A stretch of DNA of 55,468 bases from positions 1 through 55,468 of the forward strand of contig JAZNKR010000181.1 in NCBI GenBank assembly GCA_045578665.1, read 5' to 3'. Shown here one piece after another: positions 12,835 to 52,709 of the stretch. Within the stretch, counting starts at the first letter, position 1, and every line of letters begins with the position of its first letter. The notes below the pieces were generated by a model that was not told where the DNA came from, ran no database searches, and saw only the letters and a program-made list of their open reading frames with translations. The stretch is from Bacteroidaceae bacterium. GTDB taxonomy: Bacteria > Bacteroidota > Bacteroidia > Bacteroidales > Bacteroidaceae. A program made the position numbers and the translations under genes.

Positions 12835-12839
12835 TATGA

Positions 12840-12961: not shown

Positions 12962-12984
12962 TTTTTATCGTAAACAATCATACA

Positions 12985-15408: not shown

Positions 15409-15425
15409 ATTTAAAATCTAATGAC

Positions 15426-30403: not shown

Positions 30404-30404
30404 G

Positions 30405-31135: not shown

Positions 31136-31245
31136 CCTCAATTTTTTGGCGTATAGCTCATTTTCAACCATCGATTTGTACTCTGAAACATTTGAACCTC
31201 TCAATACACCTGTAGGAATGCATGTTTGAGAGGGGTCGCACCCTG

Positions 31246-36430: not shown

Positions 36431-36592
36431 ATGAAAAGAACATTCCAACCCTCTAACAGAAAGAGAAAGAACAAGCACGGTTTCCGTGAGAGAATGGCGA
36501 CAAAGAACGGTCGTCGCGTATTGGCAGCCCGTCGAGCAAAAGGACGCGCTAAGCTGACAGTTTCAGACGAGTACAATGGAAAGAAAAAATAA
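36431..36592 (+). CDS. rpmH: 50S ribosomal protein L34
   Basis: 53-aa ORF, below the ORF-track cutoff: [53 protein letters not shown]. Confidence 0.9.
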
Positions 36593-36610
36593 AATCAACT
36601 TCCAAAGCAA

Positions 36611-36648
36611 AGCGGCTGTGTCAAAATCTTGACACAGCCGCTTCTTTT
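36611..36648. terminator. Hairpin terminator between rpmH (+) and the minus-strand efflux operon
   Basis: agcggctgtgtcaa-aatc-ttgacacagccgct followed by tcttttat. Confidence 0.65.
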
Positions 36649-36718: not shown

Positions 36719-37429
36719 TCAGATAAAATTTTCGCGTTTCTGCAAATTGAGCAGTCCCAACATCATCCACGCTATGCTGCCCACGACAAGGAATATACGG
36801 TTCTTTAGCACTGTATCGCTCCAGATGACTGCATGGATGTTATCGGGCATCGAAAGAGGATTGAGCGTAACATCCCACATGCTGTTCTTTGTAAGCCCCG
36901 TGGAGAAGACAACAGCCACTATGCCGCAGATGATGATGAGTATGGCTGTGGCATTTCCATTGCGCGTTACAGTTGAGAGAAAGAATGCAAGGTTTCCCAT
37001 GAACAGCACAGGATACATCAGCTGATAGGCTATCTCGAACTGATTGACGGGGTATATCAGGTATTTGGCAATCCACGCATAGAGCACCAATATAAAGAAT
37101 ATCTCTATGTAGATGAGAATGAGCCTTGCAAACCACACTTTATACTTGTAGTCGGGTATTCCGAAGAGTATCTCCAGAATGCGGTTGTCGGCATCGTTCT
37201 GTATGCCGAAGACTGCGGGATAGAAAACCAGCAGCAGCGACGGGAAGAAGAGGAAACGGTATACATGCTCGTCGCCGGGGAGCTCGCCACGATAGGCGCT
37301 GTCGAACATGAAGTAGCCGAACAGCGCAAAGGCGGCAAGAAGGAACCATATGAATTTCCCTCCGAAGATTATCTTCATATTATAGACCGATAAACGGAAA
37401 AAGGCTCTGCCTATATTTAATATCTTCAT
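36719..37429 (-). CDS. ABC-2-type integral membrane permease (6 TM), last gene of the operon
   Basis: 236 aa from the internal Met (MKILNIGRAFFRL...), 14 nt after the stop of the upstream gene. The longer ORF-track start at 37513 would overlap that gene by 70 nt. Six hydrophobic helices. Confidence 0.7.
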   Translation of the reverse strand: MKILNIGRAFFRLSVYNMKIIFGGKFIWFLLAAFALFGYFMFDSAYRGELPGDEHVYRFLFFPSLLLVFYPAVFGIQNDADNRILEILFGIPDYKYKVWFARLILIYIEIFFILVLYAWIAKYLIYPVNQFEIAYQLMYPVLFMGNLAFFLSTVTRNGNATAILIIICGIVAVVFSTGLTKNSMWDVTLNPLSMPDNIHAVIWSDTVLKNRIFLVVGSIAWMMLGLLNLQKRENFI

Positions 37430-37443
37430 ATCTCTACTGTGTG

Positions 37444-40400
37444 TTATAGGTTCTTGAGCAGGCAAAGGTATGCATCCTCGAGGTTCTCCTCTACCCTCTC
37501 TGCATTCTCGCACGGTTTCTCGCGCGAGATGTAACGGACTCTTATCTTGTCACCGTTCATCATGTTGTTAACAATAAGTTTCTCGTCGAGTGTATCGAAT
37601 TTTTCGGGTTCGATATCGAACACCCACACTTTGTTCTCGGCAAACTTTGTCATATCGAGCGGGTCGCCATAGTATTTGAGTTCTCCGCGATTGATGACTG
37701 CAACCTGGTTACATGAGCTTGCGATGTCCTCGATGATATGCGTAGAGAATATCACAATGCGGTCACGGCTGAGCTCCACAAGCAGGTTGCGGAAGCGTAT
37801 ACGTTCGCGGGGGTCGAGTCCGGCTGTAGGCTCGTCGACAACAAGTATCCGCGGCAGATGCAACAGTATGAGGGCAATACCTATACGCTGCTTCATACCA
37901 CCCGAGAAGGAGCCTATCTTATGGTCCTTGCGTTCGTACATGTGAACAGCCTTGAGTACATATTCGAGACGCTCCTTGCGCACGATAGGATCGGTGATAC
38001 CCTTGAGCATCGCCTGATAGTCGAGGAATTCCCATGAGGTCATGCTCTCGTACATGCCGAACTCCTGGGGAAGGAATCCGATGAGGCTCTGCAACTCTTC
38101 GCGATACTCGTTTGTATTGAGACCGTTTATCCACACTGTACCGTAGCTCTGTTCGAGGATACCGGTGATGATGCGCATCATAGTAGACTTGCCGGCACCG
38201 TTGGGACCGAGAAGTCCGAACATACCTGTCTTTATCTTGAACGAGACACCTCTGAGTGCCATAAAGGGTGTGCGGCGCTTACCGATGATGGGAATACTCT
38301 TGATGGCTATGAAGAGGCTTCTTCTTGTCTCGGCAAATCTACCGGTGAGACGCTCCACATTTATTCTATGTGCATAGAGATAGTCGGATGTAACCTTCAC
38401 AGCAATGCCCAATGCCCACAAGAGACCGATGACTATTGTTGCCGGAATATTGTCTATCCCGTCGGAGATTATCATCAGGGTTATCAAGGGGAGCAGCAAT
38501 GACACGACCTTGTGCACAAGGTTCACAACACCCTTGTAACGGGTGGTATTGTATTTTAGGTATTCTCTCACCTTCTTCCACAGGTCGTAGAAGCCTGCAC
38601 AGACTGCGAAGGACAACATTATTATCCAGAACTTGTTTTCGAGATAACATGTTACCATGTAGAGTAGGAACAGATATATCACCACCTGCCACAGTACAGA
38701 GACAAAGTCCTTGAGGTGGTGGAACTCGCTGTGCAACCCCAATCGTTTGCGCAGTTTTATTCCGCTCTCCCACTGACGGGTGAACTTGTTGGACCAATCG
38801 TATATCTTTACAAGGTTGCGTATCTCTATCACAATAGGCTCGTTCTCGTCAATAATCTTCTTGTCTGCCATTCGCATCGATGTCTTGATGAAGTATGTGC
38901 AGCCGGGAATGAGCACTGTCAATGCCATTACATAGAGCAGTTGCATGAAGACACCGCTTACATAGAAATAGATGTAGAAGACTCCGAAGAGATAAATCAC
39001 CAGATGCAGGAGGTGCATGGGACGGCTGAGCGAACGGTACCACTTGAGAATATTCTCCAGCGAGAGGTAGACTGTGGGAATGAGTATCAATGTCAGCAGT
39101 GCCGAGAATGTGAGACCACCGATGACCGTCACCGCAAAAGGTGCTCCGATTGCCCCGGCATAGTCCGCATCGCCCATAGCCATAGGCAACATGGCGATTA
39201 CCGTGGTTGCTGTGGTGATAAGTATGGGACGCAGACGGGAATATCCGCTGGTGATGAGTGCCCTGTTGCGGTTATATCCTCTTTTGCGCAAGATGTTCGA
39301 GTAGTCTATGAGGATGATACCGTTGTTCACCACCACTCCCAAAAGTATGAGGAAACCTGTCATGGTGTTGGCATTCATCAGGCTGTTGCCGGTGATGAAG
39401 AGTCCGAGCAGTGAACCTATTGCAGCCAAGGGTATAGTGAAGAGCAGCACAAAGGGAGTGGAGACCGACTCGAAGACAGATGCCAATATCATGAATATGA
39501 GTATCAGCGATGCTATAATCAGGAAGTTGAACTCGCTGAGCGACTCCTCGGTGCGCTGCGTCTCTATGGCTATGCCACTGGGGACGTTGTAGCTTGCTAT
39601 AAGCTGGTCTATCTCGTCACGGTAGCCGTTGAGCACATCTTTGGGCAGATCTTCACTCTGTGTTATACCGTAGAAGATTGTTATCTCGCGGTCGCGGTTG
39701 ACACGGCGTATGCTCGAAATGTCGCGTGTGTATTTTATCGATGCCAACTGCTGCAATTCGTGCAGACCGCCGTTGGCATCGGGAATCATCACCCGACGAA
39801 GGTCTTCAACTGTTTTCTGAATCTTCTTCTGCTTCTTCTCCTCCTCTTCGCTCAGGTCCTCCTTGATGACTATAGCAAATTCGTCGTTATTCAGTTTGAG
39901 ATAGCTGTTAGTCGTCATCTCCTTGTTGAGCGAACTGAGTCCGTTTGTGATGTTCTGCCTTGTTATATTGTATGATGCCAGCAGGATGGGGTCGAAGACA
40001 AGGTGTATCTCGTTGCGGCGACCCGGGTTTGTTGCCCAGTTCCATGCCACAAAATCCATCTCGCGCAGATTGTAGCGTATGTTGTCGGCAATGATGTCCA
40101 TCATATCGAAGTCGGAGCCCTTGATTACAATGCGTTCGCTGTTGTCGCCCACACCAAGCACCCTCATGAAGCGGTTCATGGTGGATGCTGCACTGCTCTG
40201 TCCGCTGTTGGAAGAGCCGGTAGATATGCGTATATCGACGTTGGGCAGCTGCATCAGTTTGTTCAGTTCCTCGACAATTGTGGAAATCTTTCTGCCGCTG
40301 TTCTTGTAGTAGTCGTCCTTCAAGACCAATGTTATGGATGCAGCATCCTCCTGTATGCGGCAGATGACCTCCTTCTTCTCGGGGAAGCTGTCGAGTTTCT

Positions 40401-42135
40401 CTTCGAGGATGGATACCATGCGGTCCGAGTATTCCAATGTGCTCGACGAAGGCATGGTCAGGGTCATGTTCACTCTGTCGGCATTGACCGGTTTGCTGCT
40501 GTCGGTGTTCGTCGAAAGGACAATCATCCACATGGCAATAAGTACCACCACGCAGCCTGTTATGCAGATTGCGGGCTTGCGGAGGCTGGTCTTCAGAAGC
40601 ACGGTGTATATCTGCAAGGGACGCTGGTTGATGGAGAGTTTCTCGTGGAATACACTCTTTCCCTTGTTATTCTTCAGCATCACATAGGTAGACATGGGGA
40701 TGAACAGCAATGCCACTGTGAGCGAGAATAGCAACGTCGCTATGATGGAGATGCCTATGTGCTCTCCTATGAGACGTATGAACACCTCCTCGGAAAAGAG
40801 GAAGGGCAAAAAGACGGTGATGGTTGTGAGCGTAGATGCAAGGATAGACTTCCACACCTCGCGCGTTCCCTGCGTAACTGCCTGTTCGGCACTCTTTCCG
40901 TGTGTAAAGAGACGGTATATATTCTCGAGAACGACTATACTGTTGTCGAGCAACATACCTATTGCAAGAGCCATACCTACAAGGGTGAGGCTGTTGATGG
41001 ATATGTTGTAGTAGTAGAAGAGGTTGAATGCCGCCATTATGGATATGGGCATCGAGAGCGCGATGAAGAACACAAGATGTATGTTGCGCAGGAAGAACCA
41101 TAGCACCACTACAGCAAGCAAGGCACCGCTTATACCCAACTCCACAATCTGGTCGATGTTCTTCTCTATCTCATCGGCAGAATTGGACTGAATGACAAGC
41201 TCTATTTCCTGCGAAAGGAACTCCCGGTTGAGTGCTTCGAGACGCTTTTTCGTCCTGTCCGAAAGTTCCAGGATATTTACCTGCGCGTCGTTGACGAGGG
41301 CTACGGATATCGCCTCCATTCCATTCACGCGGCTCAGCGTGGTTTCGTCCTTGAGGTCGAAGAATATTTCGGCTACGTCCTTAAGGTATATAGGTCCGGG
41401 AGCCACTATCACATTCTCTATCTCGGAGATGTGGTCGTAGTTGGCATCGAGATGGACATAGTAGCGCAAATCGGGGGCATTTATATAGCCGAGGAATGTG
41501 CGTTCCTGGTTGTACTGTCCCAAGATGTCCCTTATGCGCGATGGGGTAAGTTTCAGCGCAGAAAGGGCTTCTTCGTTGAAGCGTATCTCTATGGCCTTTT
41601 CGCGTCCGCCATATACATTCACAGCCGCAACACCGTCGATATTCTCGAGTTGCGGTTTTATATCCTTGTCGACAAGCGCACGCAATCTGTCAACTCCTCC
41701 GGTGCCACGCACCTGCAGGGTCATGAAGTTGTTGTTCACTCCATTGATGTTTGCCCTCTCTATGTTCACTGTGAAGCCATCGGGCAATGAGGGAAGGACA
41801 CTGTTCACCCTCTCCTGCAATTTAAGGGTGGTATATTTAAGATTCATCCCTTTCTTGAAGTTGACGCGAATCTCGCCCTGCCTGTTCCTTGCGGTAGCCT
41901 CCATGTTCTCCACTCCTTCGATGGTGCTGATGACACCCTCGAGCGGAATGACAGCCTGCGACTCCATGTATGCCGGTGTTACGTCCCTGTCAGATGATAT
42001 GTGTATGAACAGCATCGGCAACTCTGCATTGGGCAGAATCTCTACCTTCAGTTGTTTATAGGAGACATATCCCAAGAGGGAGATGGCTATAAACAGCATA
42101 CATATGGTTATCTTGCGTTTTATTATGAAATTCAT
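37444..42135 (-). CDS. RND (AcrB-like) efflux permease fused to extra TM helices and a C-terminal ABC ATP-binding domain
   Basis: 1,563-aa uninterrupted ORF. The RND part is aa 1-~1035. The ABC NBD motifs are GPNGAGKST, FSGGMKQR, ILVVDEPTAGLD and STHI at aa 1310-1467. Confidence 0.85.
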   Translation of the reverse strand: MNFIIKRKITICMLFIAISLLGYVSYKQLKVEILPNAELPMLFIHISSDRDVTPAYMESQAVIPLEGVISTIEGVENMEATARNRQGEIRVNFKKGMNLKYTTLKLQERVNSVLPSLPDGFTVNIERANINGVNNNFMTLQVRGTGGVDRLRALVDKDIKPQLENIDGVAAVNVYGGREKAIEIRFNEEALSALKLTPSRIRDILGQYNQERTFLGYINAPDLRYYVHLDANYDHISEIENVIVAPGPIYLKDVAEIFFDLKDETTLSRVNGMEAISVALVNDAQVNILELSDRTKKRLEALNREFLSQEIELVIQSNSADEIEKNIDQIVELGISGALLAVVVLWFFLRNIHLVFFIALSMPISIMAAFNLFYYYNISINSLTLVGMALAIGMLLDNSIVVLENIYRLFTHGKSAEQAVTQGTREVWKSILASTLTTITVFLPFLFSEEVFIRLIGEHIGISIIATLLFSLTVALLFIPMSTYVMLKNNKGKSVFHEKLSINQRPLQIYTVLLKTSLRKPAICITGCVVVLIAMWMIVLSTNTDSSKPVNADRVNMTLTMPSSSTLEYSDRMVSILEEKLDSFPEKKEVICRIQEDAASITLVLKDDYYKNSGRKISTIVEELNKLMQLPNVDIRISTGSSNSGQSSAASTMNRFMRVLGVGDNSERIVIKGSDFDMMDIIADNIRYNLREMDFVAWNWATNPGRRNEIHLVFDPILLASYNITRQNITNGLSSLNKEMTTNSYLKLNNDEFAIVIKEDLSEEEEKKQKKIQKTVEDLRRVMIPDANGGLHELQQLASIKYTRDISSIRRVNRDREITIFYGITQSEDLPKDVLNGYRDEIDQLIASYNVPSGIAIETQRTEESLSEFNFLIIASLILIFMILASVFESVSTPFVLLFTIPLAAIGSLLGLFITGNSLMNANTMTGFLILLGVVVNNGIILIDYSNILRKRGYNRNRALITSGYSRLRPILITTATTVIAMLPMAMGDADYAGAIGAPFAVTVIGGLTFSALLTLILIPTVYLSLENILKWYRSLSRPMHLLHLVIYLFGVFYIYFYVSGVFMQLLYVMALTVLIPGCTYFIKTSMRMADKKIIDENEPIVIEIRNLVKIYDWSNKFTRQWESGIKLRKRLGLHSEFHHLKDFVSVLWQVVIYLFLLYMVTCYLENKFWIIMLSFAVCAGFYDLWKKVREYLKYNTTRYKGVVNLVHKVVSLLLPLITLMIISDGIDNIPATIVIGLLWALGIAVKVTSDYLYAHRINVERLTGRFAETRRSLFIAIKSIPIIGKRRTPFMALRGVSFKIKTGMFGLLGPNGAGKSTMMRIITGILEQSYGTVWINGLNTNEYREELQSLIGFLPQEFGMYESMTSWEFLDYQAMLKGITDPIVRKERLEYVLKAVHMYERKDHKIGSFSGGMKQRIGIALILLHLPRILVVDEPTAGLDPRERIRFRNLLVELSRDRIVIFSTHIIEDIASSCNQVAVINRGELKYYGDPLDMTKFAENKVWVFDIEPEKFDTLDEKLIVNNMMNGDKIRVRYISREKPCENAERVEENLEDAYLCLLKNL

Positions 42136-42163
42136 CTGTCCGTTTTTTGTAGCTGTTTATGCT

Positions 42164-45100
42164 TTATTTCTTGAACGAGGCTTTCATCTGTTCAAAAAGG
42201 GAATATACACAGGGGATTACGATGAGACTCAACAGCGTGGAGGTTACAAGACCACCTATTACGGCTATCGCCATGGGTGCACGCAACGATGCTCCGTCGC
42301 CGAAGGCTATTGCCATGGGCAGAAGCGAGAGTATGGTAGTGATGCTTGTCATGAGGATTGGTCTGATACGCTGCTGTGCAGCCTCTACTATAGCCTCTGT
42401 CAGCGGCATTCCTCCGTCCTTCAGCTGGTTGATTCGGTCGACAAGTATAATGGAGCTGTTCACGGCAATACCCGACAGCATGATTACACCTATGACTCCC
42501 ATGATGTTGATTGTTGTTCCCGTAACGAAGAAGAGCAATATGGCGCCTACCAGCGCAAGAGGTATTGTCAGCAGGATGGTAAAGGGATGGAGCAACGACT
42601 CGAACTGTGATGCCATGACCATATACACAAGCACTACAGAGAGTATGAGCGCGAAGATGAGTCCTCCCATCGACTCCTGACGTTTCTCCTCCTCACCGGT
42701 GATGTCTATCGAATAGTTTGCCGGCAGATCTATCGCTTCGAGGGTTGTGCGGATATTCTCAGAGACCTTGCTCAGGGAATATCCCTCCTCGAGGTTGGCT
42801 GTAACCTTGGCGATACGGCTCTGGTTGCGGCGGAATATCTCCTTCGGAGCCACGTCGCGACGGATGTCGGCAAGCTCGGCGAGACGGAACTGCTTGGCAT
42901 CGCTTGTGATGACAATGTCGTTGAGCTGCGACAAAGGAATCTCGGGCACTTTTATCATGATGTCGCGCATCTCGCCCTTGTAGTCCATCTGTCCGGCACT
43001 CTTTCCGGAGAGCTGTTCCTGTATCTGAGTTACTATGGTAGTTACGTTAAGATTGTTCATTCCTGCCAACGCACGGTTTACGGTTATGACAATCTCGGGC
43101 GCACCATCCTCTATGGAATTGCTCAAATTGTAGATACCGGGAACACCTTTTGCAAGTTCGTTCACCTGTGCCGTAATGTCTGCTATCTCGTCGAGCTCTT
43201 CTCCCTTGATTTCTATTACCACAGGGGCATCTTCACTTCCTAAGAGTGCACCCATCGAGTTGCGGTCCTGCATAAAGGAGAGTTCGAGGCCTTCGATGTC
43301 TGTGGTGTTGGCAAACAGCTCTTCCATCAACTCTTCGGGAGTATATTGCGATTCGGGCGAAAGTATCACCTTCAACGATGCTGTGTTGTCGCCCGAGAAG
43401 ATGTTGCTTCCCGAACTGTAGCCCGGACCTATGTGGCTGTATATGGTACATAGCGAATCCTTGGTGATGGAGTATATGAGGTTCTCGATGGATTCCACTG
43501 TTGAAGCTGTGCGTTCGAGACGTGTTCCCTCCTGCATCTTCACCTCTATACTGAATGAGTTGTTCTCGGCTTTAGGCATGAATTCGGCACCTATAAAGGG
43601 AAGCAGACAATATGTACCGCATACAAGAAGCACGGAGAGACCTACTACAAGCCAGCGTCTCCGGAGAATTGCACGCAACATATTGGAGTAGCCTTCTATT
43701 CTTATGGATGACTCCTCCCGGGCAGCCTGTGTCTTCTTTGTCTCCTTTTTGTTGCGGAACATCCTTTCGTAGAGAGTGGGGATTACCAGAATGGCGACAA
43801 AGAGTGACGATACAAGCGAGAATGTTACCGTCCATGCCTGGTCTTTGAAAAGCTCACCCGAGACACCGTGCAGGTATACGATGGGCAGGAACACCACAAT
43901 GGTCGTAAGTGTAGAAGCCGTTACCGCTCCACCGACTTCGCTCGCTCCTTGCACTACTGCATCCTTTACGGAGAGTCCCTTTTCCTGATTTCTGAAAATG
44001 CTCTCGATAACCACAATGGCATTGTCGACAAGCATACCTGCTCCCAATGCAAGACCTCCCAATGTCATTATGTTCAGTGTAAGGTCGTTGAAGAACATCA
44101 GATTGAAGGTGGCTATGATGGATATCGGCATTGCCAACGATATGACAAGTGTTACCTTCAAACGGCGCAGGAAGAGGTAGAGCACTATCACCGCAAGCAG
44201 GATACCCAGCACTGCACTGTCCTTAACCTCGCCGATTGCGCTGTTGATGAATGTTCCCTGGTTGCTTACCACATCGAACTTGTAGCCGGGCAACGCCTTC
44301 TCAATCTCGGCGAAACGCTTCACCACTCCTTCGACTGTCTTTACCGTATTGTGCTGCATCTCTTTGTAGACCGACAAGCCTATACATCGTTTGCCGTTTA
44401 TGCGCACGATATTTTCGGGGCGCTCATTCTCGAAAGAGATCTCTGCAAGGTCCTTCAGATAGATGGGAGCGCGGTCGTCTCCTGCAGCAGCCTGAGCGGT
44501 TGCTGTACCCGTTGCCGATGCCTCTGTCTTTTTATAGCTTACGATGATATTGCCAAAATCCTCTTCGCTCTTAAGGATATTGACACCGCTTACAATGTAC
44601 TGTGTTCCCATCTCGGTAACACGACCTCCCGAAAGGCGTTGGTTCTCCTCTGTAATCTGGCGGCTTATGGCATCCATTGTCAGGTTATACGCTGCCAGTT
44701 TGTAAGGGTCGGTCTTGATGACAAGATTGCTTACTTCACCACCCGTCAGGGTAACATCGGCAACTCCCTCCACGCGGATGAGTTCGTTGCGGATATATGA
44801 GTCGGCAATCTTGCGCAACTCTGCCATATTGGTGAAATAGTCGTGCGACATGCCGACGAGAACAATCGGATCGGTATTGGGATTGTTCTGGGTTATTTCG
44901 AGTTTGGTCAGTTTTTCGTCCTGCACAAAAGAGTTCATCGCCTTTTGCAGGTCGAGGAAAGCCTCGTCCATATCCTTGTTCCAGGCATACTCTACTGTAA
45001 TTTGTGCCGAGCCCGCCTTGATGACTGAAGATACGGTGGTGACGTCGCGCTGACGTATAGCCATCGACTCCATCCTCTTCACGAAGAGTTTCTCTATCTC

Positions 45101-45274
45101 TTCGGGCGGTCTCTCGCCTGCTGTTATATCGACATAGAGCTTGGGATTATTAAGCTCGGGCAACAGGTCGACACTGAGTTTGTCGTATGATATTTTGCCC
45201 AGCAACATTATACCCAGCACTGCCATGAGTATGGTAACCGGGTTGTTGACGGCGAATTGTATTAGTTTTTTCAT
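42164..45274 (-). CDS. RND (AcrB/HAE-like) efflux permease
   Basis: 1,036 aa. 12-TM RND layout with two large periplasmic loops. TM4 motif GAGMLVDNAIVVIESI. Confidence 0.9.
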   Translation of the reverse strand: MKKLIQFAVNNPVTILMAVLGIMLLGKISYDKLSVDLLPELNNPKLYVDITAGERPPEEIEKLFVKRMESMAIRQRDVTTVSSVIKAGSAQITVEYAWNKDMDEAFLDLQKAMNSFVQDEKLTKLEITQNNPNTDPIVLVGMSHDYFTNMAELRKIADSYIRNELIRVEGVADVTLTGGEVSNLVIKTDPYKLAAYNLTMDAISRQITEENQRLSGGRVTEMGTQYIVSGVNILKSEEDFGNIIVSYKKTEASATGTATAQAAAGDDRAPIYLKDLAEISFENERPENIVRINGKRCIGLSVYKEMQHNTVKTVEGVVKRFAEIEKALPGYKFDVVSNQGTFINSAIGEVKDSAVLGILLAVIVLYLFLRRLKVTLVISLAMPISIIATFNLMFFNDLTLNIMTLGGLALGAGMLVDNAIVVIESIFRNQEKGLSVKDAVVQGASEVGGAVTASTLTTIVVFLPIVYLHGVSGELFKDQAWTVTFSLVSSLFVAILVIPTLYERMFRNKKETKKTQAAREESSIRIEGYSNMLRAILRRRWLVVGLSVLLVCGTYCLLPFIGAEFMPKAENNSFSIEVKMQEGTRLERTASTVESIENLIYSITKDSLCTIYSHIGPGYSSGSNIFSGDNTASLKVILSPESQYTPEELMEELFANTTDIEGLELSFMQDRNSMGALLGSEDAPVVIEIKGEELDEIADITAQVNELAKGVPGIYNLSNSIEDGAPEIVITVNRALAGMNNLNVTTIVTQIQEQLSGKSAGQMDYKGEMRDIMIKVPEIPLSQLNDIVITSDAKQFRLAELADIRRDVAPKEIFRRNQSRIAKVTANLEEGYSLSKVSENIRTTLEAIDLPANYSIDITGEEEKRQESMGGLIFALILSVVLVYMVMASQFESLLHPFTILLTIPLALVGAILLFFVTGTTINIMGVIGVIMLSGIAVNSSIILVDRINQLKDGGMPLTEAIVEAAQQRIRPILMTSITTILSLLPMAIAFGDGASLRAPMAIAVIGGLVTSTLLSLIVIPCVYSLFEQMKASFKK

Positions 45275-45296
45275 TATTCAAATTTTAAGCAGCTTC

Positions 45297-46355
45297 CTAC
45301 TTCTGAATTTTTACCTTGCTGTTGTCGCGCAATGTCTCATATCCTCTGGTTATGAGCTGGTCCTCGACCTTGAGTCCGCGCAACACCTCAACATTGTCAT
45401 TGTCCTCTATGCCGATGTGTATGTCGCGGACTTTTGCAAAGCCCTTTTCAACGATATAGACATATTTGCGGTTGCGGTTGCTCATCACAATCTCTTTAGG
45501 AATGACGATTGCGTTCTCTGCCTTCTTCACTACAATATCTGCCTTGACGAACATTCCGGGACGCAGTTTCATCTTTTCGTTGTCGATGATGAGTTTGCCC
45601 TTGAAAGTGCGTGTTTCGGGGCTCACGGCAGGAGAGAGTTCGCTTACGGTAGCCTTGATTGTGTCGCCGGGAAGTGTGTAGTGCGTGATGAAGACATTCT
45701 GTCCTGTCTTCACTTCGTTTATTGCACTCTCGGGGAGGTTTATCTCCATCACCATCTTGGAGTAGCTCATGATTGAGACGATGGATGTTCCCGATGCGAG
45801 CTGCACCGATGATGTGTAGTGGGGAAGATTGACGATTACACCTGAGAATGGTGCCTTGATGCTCATCTTCTCGAGATTCAGTTTACCATTCTCGTAGCTG
45901 TATTTTGCATTGGTGATTGCTACCTCGGCATTTCTCAGTTCGCGAAGTGTAACACCGCCTTTCTCGCGGAGAGCTCTGGTGTTTGCCTCCTCCTGCTCGG
46001 CAATCTCAAGACTCAGTTTCTTGGAGTCTATGGCTATATCGTTCTCGTATTCCCGGTTTTCGAGCTTTACGATGACTTCACCTGCCATCACCTTGTCGCC
46101 AAGTTTGTAAGGGGCTCCTGTGCGAGGGTTCCTTTGCAATTTGTACTTGCCGGCAACCTCCGATTTCAGTTCCACCTCCGAGAAAGAGAGGGCTGTTCCC
46201 GATGTGCTGTTGTATTTGCTTATCGAACGTTTGGTCACCTCGGTTACCGATACCGGTGAGGCCAATTCTGTTGAACCTTCCTGTCTCTGTTTGTTGCAAG
46301 CTGTCAGTACAATGGATGATACAGCCATCAATGCTATAATTTTATTTATCTTCAT
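45297..46355 (-). CDS. RND periplasmic adaptor (membrane fusion protein), lipoprotein
   Basis: 352 aa. Lipobox LTAC, then lipoyl/barrel-sandwich and beta-barrel segments. Confidence 0.88.
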   Translation of the reverse strand: MKINKIIALMAVSSIVLTACNKQRQEGSTELASPVSVTEVTKRSISKYNSTSGTALSFSEVELKSEVAGKYKLQRNPRTGAPYKLGDKVMAGEVIVKLENREYENDIAIDSKKLSLEIAEQEEANTRALREKGGVTLRELRNAEVAITNAKYSYENGKLNLEKMSIKAPFSGVIVNLPHYTSSVQLASGTSIVSIMSYSKMVMEINLPESAINEVKTGQNVFITHYTLPGDTIKATVSELSPAVSPETRTFKGKLIIDNEKMKLRPGMFVKADIVVKKAENAIVIPKEIVMSNRNRKYVYIVEKGFAKVRDIHIGIEDNDNVEVLRGLKVEDQLITRGYETLRDNSKVKIQK

Positions 46356-46397
46356 AGTATTCTTGTATTTGTAATCTTTATTCTATTCTCTATATGT

Positions 46398-47924
46398 TTA
46401 TTTCTCTTCTGCGGGAACAAGGTTCATCGGCAGGATGGGCTTGTTGTTCTCGAAATCGTAGAGTGTCAATATCTTCATATTGAGCAGCTCTTTCTTGTAA
46501 TCTATGATGGTAGATACGTATGACATCTTCTTGTTTGACAGCTGGGTCTGGAACTGGTTCATCTCCATACCTGTGAGCTCGCCATTGCGGTATCTCTCTG
46601 CATTGAGGTCGTATGTAAGCTGTGCGTTCTCAACGCTTTTCTTTGCTATTGAAATCTGTGTGAGCAGGTTGGTGAGACTGCGATAGCTCTTTCTTATGGC
46701 TATCTCTATAGCCTTGCGCTCTTCGTCGGTGTCGAGGTTGTGCATCTCTATGGCTATCTCCTGTGCCTTTATGCGGGCCTTTCTTTCGCCCCAGTCGAAA
46801 ATGGGCACGTTGAACGAGAGCGATACGCGGGGATTGTTTGTCGGTGTCCTGTATATGTCGCCGAGTCTTTCGTTGTCGCCGGTGATACCTATCGACATGG
46901 AGAGCTCGCCGTTAAAACTGTTGGACTCCTTTATCTGCTTCATCTGCAAATCGAGCTCGGTACGGGAGATTTCGCGTTGCTTGAGTTCGAGACGCGAGCT
47001 CATGGCATTTGTTATTGCCTTGCCAAGATCGACCGTTACCGGGTCTGCCGTCACCTGGGCTATTATCTCTATGTCGGTGTCGAGGCTGATGCCGAGAATC
47101 TTCTTGAAATCGTCCTTGGCATTTTCGAGTGCCACAATGCGATTGTCCACTGTGCTGCGCGCTGTTGCGAGGTTGAGCTCCGCCTGATAGAGTTCGTCCC
47201 TTGTAGAGAGGTCGGCATCGACCTTGTTCTTTATTACATTGAAGTTTGCCTCTGCATCCTTCAGTTCCGCCTTGCTTATTTCGAGGTTGTTCTGCGCTAT
47301 GTAGACGCTGTAGAACTGGTTGGTTATTGAGTTTTCGAGGTTCAGACGCTGGAGGGCGTAGTTGATGAGCGCATTCTCGTAATCGAGCTCTATGCTCTTG
47401 AGGTCGAACTTTATCTGGTTGTAGCGGAAAAGCGGCTGCGAGATGCTCAGATAGAGGTCGTTGCTGTATGCGCTGTTGTCGTTGTCAACACCACCGGTTA
47501 TGCTCGACTTGTTGTTCTGCCATCCGAAACGGTTGTTCAGCGAAACGGTTGCTCCTGTCCAGATGATGGGCTGCGATATACTGAATGTTCCCGAACTCGA
47601 GAAAGATTCGTTGGTATACCACTCGGAGAGACGGTTCTCGAAATAGCGGTTACGGTTGTACGTTACGGGGTTGAGCGTCAACGAGAACCTCGACTTGAGC
47701 GAAGCTCTCTGTGCATTGAGGCTGAATCGGTATCGCCTGAGGTTCATCAACGCATTCTTTAGTGCGGGACTGTTCTCGACGCTGTAGCTGAGGGCATCGT
47801 CCAATGTCATGCTTATCTGGGCACTGGCATCTATGCTGAGGAAGCATAGAATCGACACAATCCACATCAATTTGGTTTTTAGTCGTAGCATATCTGTATG
47901 GCTTTTCTGTTTAGGTCGTTCCAT
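46398..47924 (-). CDS. TolC-family outer-membrane efflux protein
   Basis: 508-aa ORF. The real start is possibly Met12 (MLRLKTKLMWIVSILCFLSIDASA signal peptide, nt 47891). Two OEP repeats. Confidence 0.85.
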   Translation of the reverse strand: MERPKQKSHTDMLRLKTKLMWIVSILCFLSIDASAQISMTLDDALSYSVENSPALKNALMNLRRYRFSLNAQRASLKSRFSLTLNPVTYNRNRYFENRLSEWYTNESFSSSGTFSISQPIIWTGATVSLNNRFGWQNNKSSITGGVDNDNSAYSNDLYLSISQPLFRYNQIKFDLKSIELDYENALINYALQRLNLENSITNQFYSVYIAQNNLEISKAELKDAEANFNVIKNKVDADLSTRDELYQAELNLATARSTVDNRIVALENAKDDFKKILGISLDTDIEIIAQVTADPVTVDLGKAITNAMSSRLELKQREISRTELDLQMKQIKESNSFNGELSMSIGITGDNERLGDIYRTPTNNPRVSLSFNVPIFDWGERKARIKAQEIAIEMHNLDTDEERKAIEIAIRKSYRSLTNLLTQISIAKKSVENAQLTYDLNAERYRNGELTGMEMNQFQTQLSNKKMSYVSTIIDYKKELLNMKILTLYDFENNKPILPMNLVPAEEK

Positions 47925-48101
47925 TCAATTAGTAAACTATATCTCTTTGCCGGGTATATTCTGTTTTGGTTGTCATTTGTTTCATTCCAGTATTTTCTTC
48001 ATTCTTACTCAGTTGCTGCCAAAGGTTGTATCGTCGTAAAAACGAACAGGAGTCTCGAAACTAATTCAAAATCACTTCATCCAAATTTATAGAACTACCC
48101 T

Positions 48102-51100
48102 TTATTCTTTTCGTTTTACAAGCTTCACGGCATCTGCCGAAATATATCTCAGTCTTGTCTTGTTCGTAAGGGTTACACGCATTGTGTCGCAGTTGACATC
48201 GAATGTTCCTATCAGCGACCAACCGTTGTCGGCGCGACGTATATTTATTTCGTGTTCCTCTTCGTAGTCGTCGGTCTCTACCCTGAAGTTGTACATCTTG
48301 CGGCCTCTGTTGTGCCATCCTCCCCAATAAACCTCGCCGGGTTTGCGCACATAGTAGTAGAGTTCGTATCGTCCGGGCTCGGGAACGGGAATGTTCCATC
48401 TTGCATACTCCTCGCCATCGCCCGAACGGATGATAGCTGCCGAGCGGATGGATTTTCCATAGTATCCGCCGTCGGTAGTCAATGTCCATCGCATAGGCGG
48501 ATTCCACTCCATGATGCCAGAGTATTTGAAATCTTCGTCTATGCTCTTTTTCTTTATCCACTCGTTGAGCATGCCCGAGGGAGGAGGTGTGGAGAGTTCG
48601 AAGAATCTTTCATCCTCGTTGTCCACTATTATCTCATCCTTTTCGAGCAGATAGTCCGATGAAAGGGGATATTCTCCTTCGGGTATGAGCGTCTTTTCGT
48701 TTTCTATCTTTCCGCTGTTCGATGCTATCTGCATAGGCAGGTTCTTGGAGAAGAGCGCCTTGCAGATGAAGATATTGGGTGCCTCTTCCCAATGCGTTAT
48801 TATGCGTTTGGTCTCTTTGGGACCGAAATTGATTATCCACTCTGTCGGTTTCTTTTCGCCCTCGAATGTCTGATTGTCGCCGTTGCGTGTCCAGAATACA
48901 AGCTTCATATTAACATTGCCGGGCTTGTCGGAGATGTTGGAGATTACAATGTCGCCCTGATATACCTCCTTCTTGGCTGTCGTTACCTTTGTTACGATGG
49001 GGGTACCGAAGAGGAATTCGGACACCTCTATAGGTTCTTCCCAATGCTTCAATGCCGAACGCAGATCGCTGTCGGTGAGACGTCCCATGGTGTCGAGCAG
49101 AGTCTCGAAAGAGAGATTCTCGAAAGCGTGTGCCTTTACATAATTGAAGAGTGAATCGCGGAATGCACTCACACCCAATGCCTTTTCGGCATCGAGGAAG
49201 AGATGTTTGCCCTCTACCTCTATGATGTTGTTCATGAGGTTGCGAAGCTCTACATCCTTGAGCAGTTCCTTGAATGGGCGTTCCTGCAGCAGAAGCACGC
49301 ACTTCTCTTCGTTGCTGAGTCCGTTGACGTTGCGTTGCATGAAGTTGTTCCAGAAGGGCAGCTTGCTCAGCCTTATCTCTACGAGTCTGTTTGCCACAGA
49401 CCACTCCGACGAGTAGATGTTGTACTTGAAGTTATACATCTGCGGGAAGAGATAATAGGGGCTCTCTTCTATCGTTACGGAGCGGCGTCCCATACGTCCT
49501 TCGTCGAACTTGACACTTCCATTCTGGTCGGTAAGCAGCCATTTGAGCATTGCAAAGACTTCTGCTTCTATCTGCAGATTGGTCATTATTCTTCCGCCAT
49601 GGTTCTTGTTGTGCTCGCGTCTGTCCTTGCGCCATTTGATGTGCCAGTTGAAGTCGAACTGCCACAATCCGAATCCGCGCTCGGGGAGGAAGAGCATTTC
49701 GGGTTGCTGACGCTCCTGTGAGCGTGTCCATGTGCGGGAGAAACTTGCAAAATGGACGGGTACCTCTACGAAAGAGAAGCGTTTGAAGGGGTAAGGCAAT
49801 TCGAACTCTTTCTCTATGTCGCGGCGCATCTCCTTTATGAGTTTGGGCAACGTATCCTGCAGTGAGTCGAAGTTCTGTCTGAAGTAGTCGTGTCCCTCGA
49901 GATACCATGCCGAGTAGATGGTGCTGTCCGACTCCACCGATATGCTGTGATAGTCGCCTATGAGCAGCGAGAGCGACTGCAAGGGGTATTCGAGTGTAAA
50001 GCGTGTGCTCAGCGAATCCTCGCTCACTCTTATCTCTCCTTGCGACAGAGGGGTGAGCCCGGGGTTGGGTGTTACCTTCATGCCGAAATGGGTGAAGTAG
50101 TTCTGCTGCCAGTCGGGACTCTCGTCGCTGTAGCACACTCCTGGACGAGGATACCAATAGCTCTCGGGGGTGAGCATCGTGTAGTCTGCTGTCTGGAATG
50201 CGTAGCGCTTGCCCATCTTGTATTTACTCAGTCCGGCGCTCTCCACAAGCAGTTCTTCGGGAATATCGAGATAGCAGATGCGTTCGTCCACTACACCATT
50301 GTACTTCAGCGTGAAGCTGATGGTGTCTTCAGTTGTCTTCTCTTCGGGGAATGTGAGTTTCAGAAGATGGTGTTCGCGCTCTATCTCCAATGGTGCACCA
50401 TTGCACTCTGCCTCTGTAACAGCGAAGCCGGGATTGAGTGTGAATGTGAATTGTCGGGACTCCTTTGTAGGACGACCCACTATGTTTGTCTCGAAAAAGA
50501 GTTTGTCGCCCTGCTGCACTACCTCTATGCCGCAACTGTCTGTTACTATTTTGGGATTGGCGACATTCCGGTTGTTCAGGTTTATAAGATTGCTTCTGTA
50601 GTCGTCCTTTTCGGCATAATTGTATACATGCAGGAAGCCGAAGAAGAGAGCTGCGACGAATACCACCACCGCGAAAATTCCCCAGGGAAGCAACGCGTAA
50701 TGCGAGTTGGGCAGACGTCTGAACATCAATATGCTGAAGAGTATGAAGCTGAATCCCAGCAGCAGATAGAGCATCCGGTGTATAATGAGTGAGGGGAGGT
50801 CGGCAAAGCCTGTGATTGTCGACTCCATCAACGGCACATTATAGCACATGTAATCGAACAGATAGTAGTATTTGTCGCCTATGTAGTAGACTGTGAGTCC
50901 AATGTACCCCAGCAATATGACGAACGTGAGTGCCTGATTCTTGATGATGAGCATCAGTATGGTCGACAGACCTATAATATATATGAGTGTGGGCAGGTTC
51001 AGCAACAGGAAGTATTTGAAGAAACTGCCGACATCCACCGCCGCTCCCATCTTTGCATAGCCGCAGACTGTTCCCACTATTATGACAAGGAAATTGAGCA

Positions 51101-51446
51101 GCAAGAAGACGCGTATCGTTCCCCACATCTTTCCGAGCAGATACTCGGCATTGCTCAAGGGACGAACATAAAATATCTCGGAGGTGTCGAGTTGCTTGTC
51201 GCGCTTGAGATATTCCGATGCAAGGAAAATGGAGACGATTGCCTGACCTATGTTGAAGGTAAGCATCAGGGAGTAGCCAAGCAGCGTGGGTATGCTCTCT
51301 ACATAGCGCGACTCTCCCAATGTGGTGAAAGCGGTAAATATTGTCGCCAGAATGGTGAGAGTGGCAAATACCTTAAAGAACCAACTCCGGTAGAGTAGTT
51401 TCGATTCGTATTTTGATACAGATTGTATGTTTTTCAGAAAGAGCAT
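48102..51446 (-). CDS. ABC-2-type permease (7 TM) fused to an ~830-aa extracytoplasmic region with a golvesin-like C-terminal domain
   Basis: 1,114 aa. Seven N-terminal hydrophobic helices (aa ~20-280). The large soluble region has no HEXXH. The C-terminus (ARWNIPVPEPGRYELYYYV...GWSLIGTFDV...ADAVKLV) resembles golvesin/Xly-type C-terminal domains. Confidence 0.7.
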   Translation of the reverse strand: MLFLKNIQSVSKYESKLLYRSWFFKVFATLTILATIFTAFTTLGESRYVESIPTLLGYSLMLTFNIGQAIVSIFLASEYLKRDKQLDTSEIFYVRPLSNAEYLLGKMWGTIRVFLLLNFLVIIVGTVCGYAKMGAAVDVGSFFKYFLLLNLPTLIYIIGLSTILMLIIKNQALTFVILLGYIGLTVYYIGDKYYYLFDYMCYNVPLMESTITGFADLPSLIIHRMLYLLLGFSFILFSILMFRRLPNSHYALLPWGIFAVVVFVAALFFGFLHVYNYAEKDDYRSNLINLNNRNVANPKIVTDSCGIEVVQQGDKLFFETNIVGRPTKESRQFTFTLNPGFAVTEAECNGAPLEIEREHHLLKLTFPEEKTTEDTISFTLKYNGVVDERICYLDIPEELLVESAGLSKYKMGKRYAFQTADYTMLTPESYWYPRPGVCYSDESPDWQQNYFTHFGMKVTPNPGLTPLSQGEIRVSEDSLSTRFTLEYPLQSLSLLIGDYHSISVESDSTIYSAWYLEGHDYFRQNFDSLQDTLPKLIKEMRRDIEKEFELPYPFKRFSFVEVPVHFASFSRTWTRSQERQQPEMLFLPERGFGLWQFDFNWHIKWRKDRREHNKNHGGRIMTNLQIEAEVFAMLKWLLTDQNGSVKFDEGRMGRRSVTIEESPYYLFPQMYNFKYNIYSSEWSVANRLVEIRLSKLPFWNNFMQRNVNGLSNEEKCVLLLQERPFKELLKDVELRNLMNNIIEVEGKHLFLDAEKALGVSAFRDSLFNYVKAHAFENLSFETLLDTMGRLTDSDLRSALKHWEEPIEVSEFLFGTPIVTKVTTAKKEVYQGDIVISNISDKPGNVNMKLVFWTRNGDNQTFEGEKKPTEWIINFGPKETKRIITHWEEAPNIFICKALFSKNLPMQIASNSGKIENEKTLIPEGEYPLSSDYLLEKDEIIVDNEDERFFELSTPPPSGMLNEWIKKKSIDEDFKYSGIMEWNPPMRWTLTTDGGYYGKSIRSAAIIRSGDGEEYARWNIPVPEPGRYELYYYVRKPGEVYWGGWHNRGRKMYNFRVETDDYEEEHEINIRRADNGWSLIGTFDVNCDTMRVTLTNKTRLRYISADAVKLVKRKE

Positions 51447-51518
51447 GCTTCCGATATTGCTTTTGGGTTCAGTTGTTTGTGTTTATATTATGATAGTTGT
51501 TCGGGAAAAGGATGTTTG

Positions 51519-52412
51519 TCAATCGTTAAGCCACAGATTGAGACTCTTTTCCATGAAGTAGACGTAGGCATGTTCGAGGTTGGGTGGCATATTCTCTGCC
51601 TCGTATTCATCGAAATTGTCTGCGACCACCTGTATATCCCACATATCGCCTTTGGGTATTGTGGCTATGATAGGATATTTGTTGTTTATGGCATTGTATT
51701 GTTCGTCGTCCACGCACAAACGCCACACCTTGCCCTCGGCACGTTTGAGCATCTCTTCGGGAGAGCCTCTGAAAGATATTTCACCCTTGTTGAGAAGCGC
51801 CATGTCGTTGCACGAACTGGAAATATCTCCCACGATGTGGGTTGAGAGTATGATGGTGGTGTCGTTGCCGCTGACCTGTGTCAGCAGGTTGCGGAAGCGG
51901 ATGCGTTCCTCGGGGTCGAGACCGGTTGTAGGTTCGTCTACTATTATCACCTTCGGTTCGTGGATAAGCGCCTGTGCAATGCCCAATCGGCGCTTCATAC
52001 CTCCCGAGAGGTTTGCGGCATAGCGTTCGCGCACCTCGTAGAGACCTACCTTCTCGAGCATGTCGGCAACTGCTTTCTTGCGCACCTTGCCATTGTTCAT
52101 TCCCGAAAGACGCGCTGCATAATCGAGGAACTCTATCACCTTGTACTTTGCAAAGAAACGAAAATCCTGCGGCAGATATCCCAATATGCGTCTCACCTCC
52201 CTGCGCTCTTTCAACAGATTGCATCCATACATCTCTATCTCGCCCGATGAGGGTTCCATGAGAGCCACAAGTATACGCATAAGCGTTGATTTACCGGCTC
52301 CATTGGGACCAAGCAAACCAAACATTCCTGACGGTATCTCTAAATTTATATCCTTCAGTGCATGATTCCCGTTGGGATATACTTTATTTAGATTCTTTAT
52401 TTTTATTGACAT
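51519..52412 (-). CDS. ABC transporter ATP-binding protein (first gene of the operon), paralog of the NBD fused to the RND pump
   Basis: 297 aa. Motifs GPNGAGKST, LSGGMKRRLGIAQA, VIIVDEPTTGLD and STHI. The C-terminal extension (KVWRL...LEHAYVYF) parallels KVWVF...LEDAYLCL in the fusion protein. Confidence 0.9.
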   Translation of the reverse strand: MSIKIKNLNKVYPNGNHALKDINLEIPSGMFGLLGPNGAGKSTLMRILVALMEPSSGEIEMYGCNLLKERREVRRILGYLPQDFRFFAKYKVIEFLDYAARLSGMNNGKVRKKAVADMLEKVGLYEVRERYAANLSGGMKRRLGIAQALIHEPKVIIVDEPTTGLDPEERIRFRNLLTQVSGNDTTIILSTHIVGDISSSCNDMALLNKGEISFRGSPEEMLKRAEGKVWRLCVDDEQYNAINNKYPIIATIPKGDMWDIQVVADNFDEYEAENMPPNLEHAYVYFMEKSLNLWLND

Positions 52413-52709
52413 TTTTATCTACGTCTCGCAAGAGATATAATAGGTGCAATTTACAATGTTTATTTTATGACTGTAAAAGTACTGCTAAGTTTAATGAACA
52501 ACGCATATTTAGTCTTTTTTAACACAAGAAAAAAACTTATTATAGGCTTTTCTGCATCACTACATGAAAAGCAGCGAAAGCATTCCTTTAAAAACATGCC
52601 ATCGAAGTTCTTCCACCGGGAACAACTTTCAGCCATATCCGTTTTAATATTGGAGATAATACAAATAGAGGCAAGACCTCATTACTAACCCTAAAAAACA
52701 AGAGAGAAA

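Follow-up and report, generated by a model that had tools for sequence, protein, structure and literature searches.

Tripartite systems are classed by a single inner-membrane engine, which is an ATP-binding cassette (ABC) transporter, a resistance-nodulation-division (RND) permease or a major facilitator superfamily (MFS) protein, and RND heterotrimers, of which MdtBC is an example, are rare (PMC8277102). Here we report on a locus of seven minus-strand genes (g1 to g7) from a Bacteroidaceae bacterium (GenBank assembly GCA_045578665.1, contig JAZNKR010000181.1, positions 1 to 55,468; this whole stretch of 55,468 nucleotides is called the window below), in which components of the ABC and of the RND class lie together and in which an RND permease and an ABC nucleotide-binding domain (NBD) are joined in a single polypeptide. 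A full-text search of the literature found no paper describing the RND-NBD fusion or the seven-gene operon, subscription-only literature and entries of the transporter database TCDB lying outside that search.

The seven open reading frames (ORFs) that a first-pass annotation of the window had grouped into one gene train were all found where it had placed them, and their products are as follows (TM, transmembrane; MFP, membrane fusion protein; OMF, outer-membrane factor).

51519..52412, minus strand: g1, free ABC ATPase of 297 aa (ABC_tran, 108 bits)
48102-51446, minus strand: g2, 7-TM protein with a big periplasmic domain (Golvesin_C and weak Peptidase_M1 matches)
46398..47924, minus strand: g3, TolC-like OMF with a signal peptide (OEP, 145 bits)
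45297..46355, minus strand: g4, lipoprotein periplasmic adaptor of the MFP type (TIGR01730 RND_mfp, 189 bits)
42164..45274, minus strand: g5, stand-alone RND permease of 1036 aa (ACR_tran, 741 bits, full length)
37444-42135, minus strand: g6, RND-NBD fusion of 1563 aa in a single ORF (ACR_tran and ABC_tran)
36719..37429, minus strand: g7, six-TM membrane protein of 236 aa (ABC-2 permease by transitive homology only)

On recount, the gaps from g1 to g7 are 72, 177, 42, 22, 28 and 14 nt, as first reported. The absence of an internal terminator, also part of that annotation, was borne out by a terminator scan of the minus strand within the train, which found nothing convincing and only two 5-bp stems, both in coding sequence. 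The same scan detected a stem-loop just downstream of g7, followed in the minus-strand reading by a T-rich tail on its 3' side.

36610..36643, no strand assigned: palindromic hairpin with a 15-bp stem

Because the spacing is tight, no internal terminator is apparent and a hairpin closes the train, the seven genes are predicted to form one conserved operon. A small unlisted ORF at 36435-36590 on the plus strand, convergent with g7, was recognised by eye as ribosomal protein L34 (rpmH), and the hairpin is likely to be a bidirectional terminator common to the operon and rpmH.

Among the RND tripartite pumps, the system appears closest to MdtABC by its gene content. As in MdtABC-TolC and AcrAB-TolC, there are two tandem RND paralogues with full-length ACR_tran matches, one adaptor and a TolC-type channel. 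Unlike in these pumps, the g6 RND carries a C-terminal ABC ATPase and six extra TM helices, the operon adds a second ATPase and two ABC-2-type permeases, and the equivalents of D408 and K940 are Asn. With MacAB-TolC the locus shares an ATP-driven inner-membrane component accompanied by an adaptor and TolC; in contrast to MacAB, g2 and g7 have neither an FtsX nor a MacB_PCD domain, and are thus not of type VII, the NBDs are of the ABC-2 (GldA/DrrA/NosF/ABCA-like) group, and RND pumps are also present. A true MacAB-type operon lies elsewhere in the window (9359-17885, plus strand), with an OEP gene (9359-10690), a HlyD adaptor (10695-11945), an ABC ATPase (12151-12834) and two FtsX/MacB_PCD permeases (12985-15408 and 15426-17885).

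Likenesses to NosDFY, GldAFG and YbhGFSR comprise an NBD whose C-terminal extension resembles NosF and TM_1403, with GldA nearest by profile, six-TM permeases of apparent PF12679 type, and a large extracytoplasmic domain linked to the permease. The locus differs from them in that this external domain has the fold of M1 aminopeptidases and is fused to the permease, in that the GldA cutoff is not reached, and in that one of the NBDs forms part of an RND protein and is interrupted by a TM insertion; to our knowledge, an RND pump belongs to none of the three systems. An RND-superfamily protein that works with an ATPase has a precedent in SecDF, which cooperates with SecA: beside SecYEG-SecA, it serves as a proton-driven periplasmic 'pull' device next to an ATPase step at the same membrane site. 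Unlike here, substrates and components are others, the SecDF parts are not covalently fused to that ATPase machinery, and there is neither an adaptor nor an OMF.

Conservation of the gene order and breadth of the fusion

The RND-NBD fusion, of about 1565 aa, is found in more than 100 full-length clusters in Bacteroidales. PF00873 and PF00005 occur together in each of the 120 relatives that match g6 best (59-100% identity), and nearly all of these measure 1544-1580 aa. They stem from Bacteroidales/Bacteroidaceae assemblies in NCBI, ENA, JGI and Logan, mostly of animal-gut origin. When the seven proteins were compared by tblastn with all fetched loci, the order g1-g2-g3-g4-g5-g6-g7 was identical in all ten Bacteroidales loci that cover it (L002-L006, L008, L010, L011, L022 and L023), and it holds from 94% down to about 58% fusion identity. 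Five more loci that are cut by the end of the contig or of the fetched region (L001, L024-L027) are consistent with this order as far as the sequence runs, and these partial loci include the complete genome of the cultured species Bacteroides bouchesdurhonensis (LT707006.1) and a metagenome-assembled genome of Parabacteroides. Since the flanking genes differ from locus to locus, the conserved unit is the seven-gene block. The proposal that the ABC and RND modules belong together, as a hybrid machine or as two engines with a common exit duct, for which loss of synteny in relatives had been named as a refuting result, has therefore gained support, as the order is kept in relatives with unrelated flanks.

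For the breadth of the family, an exhaustive search with g6 residues 1031-1563 was made among 1.84 billion cluster representatives. It yielded about 35 more clusters at 50% identity that are fusion-like, being 1340-1600 aa long and matched at the C-terminus; the six distant clusters tested with Pfam all have both ACR_tran and ABC_tran, and one cluster is annotated as candidate division KSB1. The lineages with the fusion thus number at least three at the level of phylum (Bacteroidota, Acidobacteriota and candidate division KSB1), and the gene contexts of the distant fusions are as follows.

L030, Acidobacteriota UBA4820: NBD, 1136-aa golvesin-C protein, MFP, RND, fusion, 246-aa protein
L031, KSB1: MFP, RND, fusion, 235-aa protein
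L029, source unknown: 908-aa 7-TM protein, NBD, 248-aa protein, MFP, RND, fusion
L032, source unknown: RND, 872-aa 7-TM Peptidase_M1 protein, fusion
L028, source unknown: fusion and a 243-aa PF12679 permease only (minimal form)

The Acidobacteriota order is the Bacteroidales order minus the OMF, and its 1136-aa protein is homologous to g2 over the full length (22% identity, E 4e-45). From these distant contexts it follows that the core is the RND-NBD fusion, usually followed by the small permease, to which other genes seem, from comparison of the loci, to have been added blockwise, namely a partner RND with the adaptor, a free NBD with a 7-TM big-domain protein, and the OMF. Small called ORFs inside the cluster, both absent from the window, were seen in L023 (4214-4363, 49 aa, between g2 and the OMF) and in L027 (19080-19295, 71 aa, between the RND and the fusion).

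Nothing was seen to favour the view that the fusion stems from a frameshift or an error of assembly, or that the ABC and RND genes are neighbours by accident. The same ORF of about 1565 aa recurs across many assemblies and sources, in more than 100 independent clusters, it is present in the complete genome of a cultured species, the order is kept in all informative loci, and fusion clusters exist in distant lineages. An artefact or chance arrangement is thereby refuted for practical purposes.

Architecture of the RND-NBD fusion protein

That g6 joins an RND pump to an NBD had been recognised in the first-pass annotation, and both Pfam domains indeed lie in the one ORF, ACR_tran covering aa 2-1026 (519 bits) and ABC_tran covering aa 1294-1438 (92.7 bits); what had gone unremarked is that the NBD is interrupted by four TM helices. 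The parts of the gene are as follows.

39046..42135, minus strand: RND domain, aa 1-1030 (ACR_tran, 519 bits)
38878..39027, minus strand: extra two-helix TM hairpin after RND TM12, about aa 1037-1086 (AlphaFold2 model, hydropathy)
38800..38832, minus strand: NBD strand β1, aa 1102-1112, VIEIRNLVKIY (DSSP, alignment)
38269..38799, minus strand: insertion within the NBD, about aa 1113-1289, an amphipathic helix and four TM helices (AlphaFold2 model)
37444..38268, minus strand: rest of the NBD and C-terminal extension, aa 1290-1563, with the stop codon (ABC_tran)

An AlphaFold2 (AF2) model of aa 1031-1563 (pLDDT 74, pTM 0.50) places the hairpin in helices at fragment residues 8-28 and 32-56, with pLDDT 82-90 and in agreement with hydropathy. 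It is followed by strand β1, which DSSP assigns to fragment residues 73-80 (aa 1103-1110), and then by helices at fragment residues 87-101, 111-134, 138-166, 171-197 and 200-225, the last four of which are the TM helices of the insertion and span aa 1141-1255. In an alignment, the counterparts of strand β1 are IKIKNLNKVY in g1 and, in a short-linker fusion, P0339, the contiguous β1 IEVRNLTKIY. The distance from β1 to Walker A is 207 aa in g6 against 32 aa in P0339, the latter as in ordinary NBDs, and the match of the NCBIfam GldA profile to the downstream NBD of g6 begins only at profile position 15. The NBD of g6 thus appears, from alignment and from the model, to be split between strands β1 and β2 by an insertion of about 175 aa with four TM helices. 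In total the fusion would have about 18 TM helices, the ATPase being tied to the membrane at three points in the AF2 model.

The motifs of the g6 NBD read GPNGAGKST, LPQ, FSGGMKQR, VDEPTAGLD and STH. Among 36 sequences of the family, Walker A, Q-loop, signature, Walker B-E and H-loop are invariant, as are the β1 residues I, N, L, V, K and Y. The insertion also carries invariant residues in this set and is therefore under selection. Comparison by HHalign of the six extra TM helices with g7 and with the membrane domain of g2 gave no homology, and the idea that these helices are a degenerate ABC-2 membrane domain was dropped after this null result.

The pair of nucleotide-binding domains

The free ATPase g1 has intact NBD motifs as well (GPNGAGKST, LPQ, LSGGMKRR, VDEPTTGLD and STH), so that by motif both NBDs are predicted to be active-type ABC ATPases. 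They share 43% identity over 271 aa, including the C-terminal extension (KVW...NLE.AY), which in g1 is of the regulatory type, in agreement with the paralogy and common extension already noticed in the first reading of the DNA. In the NCBIfam search the best match of g1 is GldA (TIGR03522, 200.8 bits, with 178.9 bits for g6), and since this lies below the cutoff of 402.6, g1 is not a GldA equivalog. By sequence profile the NBDs are nearest to GldA and DrrA, and by comparison with PDB entries and folds they are nearest to NosF and ABCA, the g6 NBD with its C-terminal extension giving Foldseek matches to TM_1403 (4yer), NosF and ABCA NBDs; both would accordingly be members of the type V/ABC-2 group. 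With 75-97% identity across loci (tblastn), g1 is the best-conserved gene of the cluster. A rough neighbour-joining tree places the free NBDs of Bacteroidales with those of Acidobacteriota and apart from the fused NBDs, which means that the two paralogues have been kept as separate lineages.

The intact state of both NBDs bears on the view that the locus encodes two or three independent transporters that are merely co-expressed and co-localised, that is, an ABC transporter g1-g2, a second one formed by the g6 NBD and g7, and the RND pump g5/g6. These would share a pathway, or the adaptor and TolC-like channel, with no hand-over of substrate, and the fusion would serve only stoichiometry or targeting. 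Both NBDs being fully consensus, the degenerate site that is common in obligate heterodimers is missing, and module combinations do vary by lineage, with the fusion and a permease alone in one case, no g1/g2 in others and no OMF in others; moreover, YbhGFSR is an ABC-2 system with an adaptor of its own. However, a covalent fusion kept across at least three phylum-level lineages is hard to explain if the parts do not cooperate physically, a difficulty increased by the elaborate and conserved membrane anchor within the NBD, and the single adaptor, the single OMF and the strictly preserved gene order likewise argue against independence. On balance we regard this explanation as unlikely.

RND permeases, adaptor and outer-membrane channel

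The two RND permeases, encoded in tandem, are 27-37% identical between g5 and the RND domain of g6, and both carry the full-length ACR_tran domain of a 12-TM RND permease with two large periplasmic loops. The closest solved chains to the g6 RND are MdtB, CmeB, MexB and AcrB, and the scores of g5 and g6 remain far below the cutoffs of every named NCBIfam RND subfamily. As the first annotation had it, one adaptor and one TolC-like protein accompany them. The adaptor g4 scores 189 bits against TIGR01730 (cutoff 94.9), also matches HlyD_D23, and has a lipobox (...VLTAC, with LTAC as its core). The channel g3 matches OEP, together with the TolC and NodT families below their NCBIfam cutoffs, and its probable true start is M12 (47891), as in orthologues.

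In g5 and g6 the equivalents of the AcrB relay residues D407, R971 and T978 are kept, while those of D408 (TM4) and K940 (TM10) are Asn. We surveyed these positions in 30 RNDs, consisting of g5, g6 and, from L022-L032, 20 other fusions and eight partner RNDs. The D407 equivalent is kept in all 30, and R971 and T978 equivalents in all but one or two; at the D408 position there is Asn, with Ser in two of the 30, and at the K940 position Asn without exception. As unfused partner RNDs carry the same D-N/N variant, it is a trait of the family and not a consequence of the fusion, and for that reason the loss of D408 and K940 was not accepted as proof of ATP drive. The family RNDs represent a distinct proton-relay variant that is not canonical HAE-1, which does not imply loss of proton coupling.

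These replacements are nevertheless a point in favour of an RND that is driven or gated by ATP. In such a pump the fused NBD would form a dimer with g1 or with another copy of g6, this event would be relayed through the six extra TM helices to the TM domain of the RND, and ATP would replace or gate the proton-motive cycle, g2 and g7 being accessory stators. Besides the absence of D408 and K940 equivalents from all family RNDs, it would fit that in some relatives, P0339 among them, no more than about 25-40 aa separate the NBD from TM12, that the g6 NBD is held to the membrane at three points, and that the invariant residues of the insertion place it under selection. Against it stand the occurrence of the D-N/N variant in unfused partner RNDs, which makes it a lineage trait, the retention of the D407, R971 and T978 equivalents, which suggests that proton coupling persists, and the presence of an ABC-2 permease, the normal partner of such an NBD, after the fusion in most contexts, including the minimal form. 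We also know of no RND that is driven by ATP, and we consider this mechanism quite unlikely.

The membrane proteins g2 and g7

The gene g2 is divided as follows.

50565..51446, minus strand: ABC-2-like membrane domain, aa 1-294 (hydropathy, AF2)
49017..50549, minus strand: periplasmic M1-aminopeptidase-like region, about aa 300-810 (Foldseek)
48117..48491, minus strand: C-terminal golvesin-C-like β-sandwich, aa 986-1110 (PF25275; all-β in AF2)

Hydropathy and the AF2 model (pLDDT 80) agree on the seven TM helices first proposed, the membrane part consisting of an N-terminal amphipathic helix and six TM helices, followed by a seventh that puts the rest of the protein outside (helices at 2-20, 22-44, 54-88, 99-133, 139-168, 171-187, 217-241 and 249-294). 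The external domain thus measures about 830 aa in the model. It had been described as giant and golvesin-like. The size is right, and Golvesin_C does match aa 986-1110 (PF25275, 43.9 bits, cutoff 31.6), but the bulk of the domain has the fold of an M1 aminopeptidase, with a β-domain and a thermolysin-like domain. Residues of about 300-810 match IRAP, ERAP1 and PepN in Foldseek with E values from 1e-17 to 1e-14 over about 650 aligned columns, at a sequence identity of 9-12%, and a weak Pfam match to Peptidase_M1 covers aa 712-802. A search of PDB sequences with g2 returned noise only, the M1 fold emerging solely from the AF2 model and Foldseek.

In contrast to the M1 aminopeptidases, g2 lacks HEXXH and GXMEN, and the domain is joined to a 7-TM ABC-2-like membrane part. 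None of 33 orthologues has a GXMEN motif, and none has HEXXH at the expected position, the sole HEXXH among them being HETKH at residue 885 of P0172, outside the M1-like region. An active peptidase was rejected on account of the missing HEXXH-(18)-E zinc site and GXMEN, and the external domain, as modelled, would be a pseudo-peptidase scaffold with the M1 fold and without its zinc motifs. NCBI names the protein 'xanthan lyase' or 'golvesin C-terminal-like domain-containing protein', and what we found on golvesin in the literature is mainly Dictyostelium cell biology, with nothing on a bacterial transporter. At the position of g2, L029 encodes a 908-aa 7-TM protein with no Pfam match (1413-4139), and L032 encodes an 872-aa 7-TM protein with a Peptidase_M1 match and no HEXXH (3427-6045). 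The gene contexts suggest that the RND-NBD fusion is repeatedly paired with a 7-TM protein that carries a domain of the dead-M1 type. With 43-57% identity where the fusion has 58-76%, g2 is the least conserved gene of the cluster, its periplasmic domain evolving fast.

The membrane domain of g2 has no Pfam match of its own. The family PF12679 (ABC2_membrane_2), which we take to be of NosY/GldF type, was found below its cutoff of 27.2 in two g2 orthologues (24.4 and 19.6 bits) and faintly in the Acidobacteriota homologue (12.8 bits, E 0.071). The small protein g7 has six hydrophobic segments by hydropathy and no Pfam, NCBIfam or PDB sequence match, eight of its orthologues being likewise without a Pfam match. 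By HHalign it is related, with a probability of 99.5%, to its positional counterparts in the Acidobacteriota, KSB1 and L028 contigs (81-99.6% over the counterparts elsewhere), and the L028 protein scores 35.2 bits against PF12679, above the cutoff. By this transitive homology, g7 is inferred to be a divergent ABC-2 permease. Of the first-pass assignment of a plausible ABC-2 partner to each NBD, the part on g2 has the weak sub-threshold PF12679 matches of its orthologues behind it, and the label of g7 is reached by inference without a direct match. Its ATG start at 37429, as originally placed, is backed by the orthologues; the longest ORF starts with GTG at 37513.

In type V permeases, the helix that couples to the NBD sits in the TM2-TM3 loop. 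The TM2-TM3 cytoplasmic loop is the most conserved segment of g2 and likewise of g7; in g2 it is invariant (S77...E90) and placed where the type V coupling helix would be, and in g7 it holds an invariant E86.

The anatomy of g2 raises the question of whether the ABC module transports at all. As in NosDFY or LolCDE, it could be a mechanotransducer, ATP being used to move the M1-like and golvesin-C domains of g2 for loading, unloading or remodelling a periplasmic or surface molecule, such as a peptide or glycoconjugate, that the RND would go on to export or remove. The NBDs are NosF-like in fold, PF12679 is the family to which g2 and g7 are weakly or transitively matched, the periplasmic domain of g2 is large and fast-evolving, with a peptide-binding fold and no catalytic motif, and analogous 7-TM proteins with big external domains lie beside the fusion in other loci. 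Minimal systems without g2, on the other hand, do not fit this explanation, and a ligand for the g2 domain is purely conjectural. The mechanotransducer overlaps with the export relay described below, differing only in whether the substrate crosses the inner membrane, and we judge it quite unlikely as well.

A possible relay of ABC and RND steps

The explanation that we prefer, and to which we give an even chance, is that the seven genes encode a composite ABC-plus-RND envelope exporter working as a relay. Its scaffold would be an RND-type tripartite system formed by g5, the N-terminal 1030 aa of g6, the adaptor g4 and the TolC-like channel g3. By analogy with MdtBC, a hetero-oligomer of g5 and g6 is plausible. 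Since one of its two ATPases is fused to the C-terminus of the g6 RND, a type V ABC module would be attached to this scaffold, the g6 ATPase being anchored in the membrane by six extra TM helices (the two-helix hairpin and the four-helix insertion). The free paralogous ATPase g1 and the two mutually unrelated permeases g2 and g7 would round off the module.

In this relay the ABC module would use ATP to remove an amphipathic substrate from the cytoplasm or inner membrane, or to present it, at the periplasmic side, where the dead-peptidase platform of g2 is probably the site of binding or hand-over. RND pumps draw their substrates from the periplasm or the outer leaflet, and the adjoining RND would capture the substrate there and expel it through g4 and g3. 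This second step is probably still proton-driven by way of the retained TM4 Asp and TM11 Arg, and the fusion would hold both steps in one complex. As to the substrate, the M1 fold hints at peptides and golvesin-C at glycans, neither hint being strong; the earlier suggestion of a polymer, glycan or lipid-linked substrate, drawn from the golvesin-like domain, is weakened by the finding that this domain makes up only the last 125 aa or so.

Two stoichiometries may be envisaged for the ABC module. One fused NBD per RND trimer could pair with g1 over a membrane pair of g2 and g7, a heterodimer that fits L029 and L030 because these have two NBDs and two membrane partners. Alternatively, two g6 protomers per trimer could pair their NBDs over a g7 dimer, g1-g2 being a separate transporter, and this homodimer fits because of the minimal forms L028 and L031.

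Several points weigh against the relay. Gene content is its only basis. Two residues of the HAE-1 proton relay in its canonical form, D408 and K940, are replaced in every RND of the family, and therefore proton coupling is not assured. Some relatives (L028 and L031) have no g1/g2 half, which must consequently be dispensable for the core function. Confidence in the AF2 model of the g6 linker is moderate (pLDDT 74, pTM 0.50). Finally, g7 and the membrane domain of g2 show no detectable relation (HHalign probability below 1%), and because the six extra TM helices of g6 match neither of them, the make-up of the ABC membrane domain is uncertain.

A stronger claim would be that this is the first efflux machine with both energy sources in one complex, and a third class of tripartite pump besides those driven by protons alone or by ATP alone. 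The fused and the free NBD would then form a pair coupled mechanically, through the six extra TM helices, to an RND trimer with the variant proton relay, and ATP binding or hydrolysis would drive or gate the RND cycle, or feed substrate into the RND. We regard this claim, the mechanical coupling and the use of ATP alike, as possible but rather doubtful.

Flanking regions and other features of the window

Two non-coding regions of the operon were inspected for signals.

52413..52709, minus strand: intergenic region upstream of g1, up to the divergent gene at 52710, presumed to be the promoter region
47925..48101, minus strand: g2-g3 spacer of 177 nt, unusually long in this genome

Upstream of g1, a scan found near-consensus sigma-70-like boxes at 52477-52448, a consensus that is uninformative for Bacteroidota, and no exact Bacteroides TAnnTTTG box was seen by eye in 52413..52709. 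Between g2 and g3 lie 177 nt in this genome, or 210 nt with M12 taken as the start of g3, compared with about 20-35 nt in L010, L002 and L003. The sequence of this spacer is unique within the window and the fetched loci, and a repeat was ruled out by the lack of a second copy there. The extra sequence might contain an internal promoter. Base composition over the locus is unremarkable, and a search for RNA genes gave no Rfam or tRNA matches.

The flanks in the window comprise housekeeping genes (enolase, a PALP/ACT enzyme, RidA and L34) and, upstream of g1, three ORFs with no Pfam match. Flanking genes were dropped as a clue to function, being housekeeping or without Pfam match and varying between genomes.

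Further away, a 163-nt repeat occurs in three direct copies (29615-29777, 30401-30563 and 30985-31147) that are 90% identical and have internal inverted arms of 34 nt. They sit in a low-GC (0.39-0.41), ORF-poor stretch by an AAA_14/DUF4143 ATPase gene (28143-29417), and the repeat has no Rfam or tRNA match. A YhcG/DUF1016 PDDEXK-nuclease gene (18077-19231, minus strand) has the MacB-type permeases on one side and a peptidase M20 gene on the other; it lies in a local GC dip (0.406) and may be a small foreign insertion.

Implications

The architecture of this locus is unexpected and widespread. A primary, ATP-using transporter and a secondary, proton-using one are combined in one polypeptide and one operon, from gut Bacteroidaceae to Acidobacteriota and KSB1. 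Generic annotation as 'efflux RND transporter permease subunit', 'xanthan lyase' or 'hypothetical' hides the system. It is open to testing because it is present in the cultured Bacteroides bouchesdurhonensis. If the parts cooperate, it would show the coupling of two transport steps or energy sources in one machine, would offer two new structural elements for study, an NBD split by a membrane insertion and a dead M1 peptidase as a periplasmic platform, and would add an unrecognised type of efflux to gut and rumen anaerobes.

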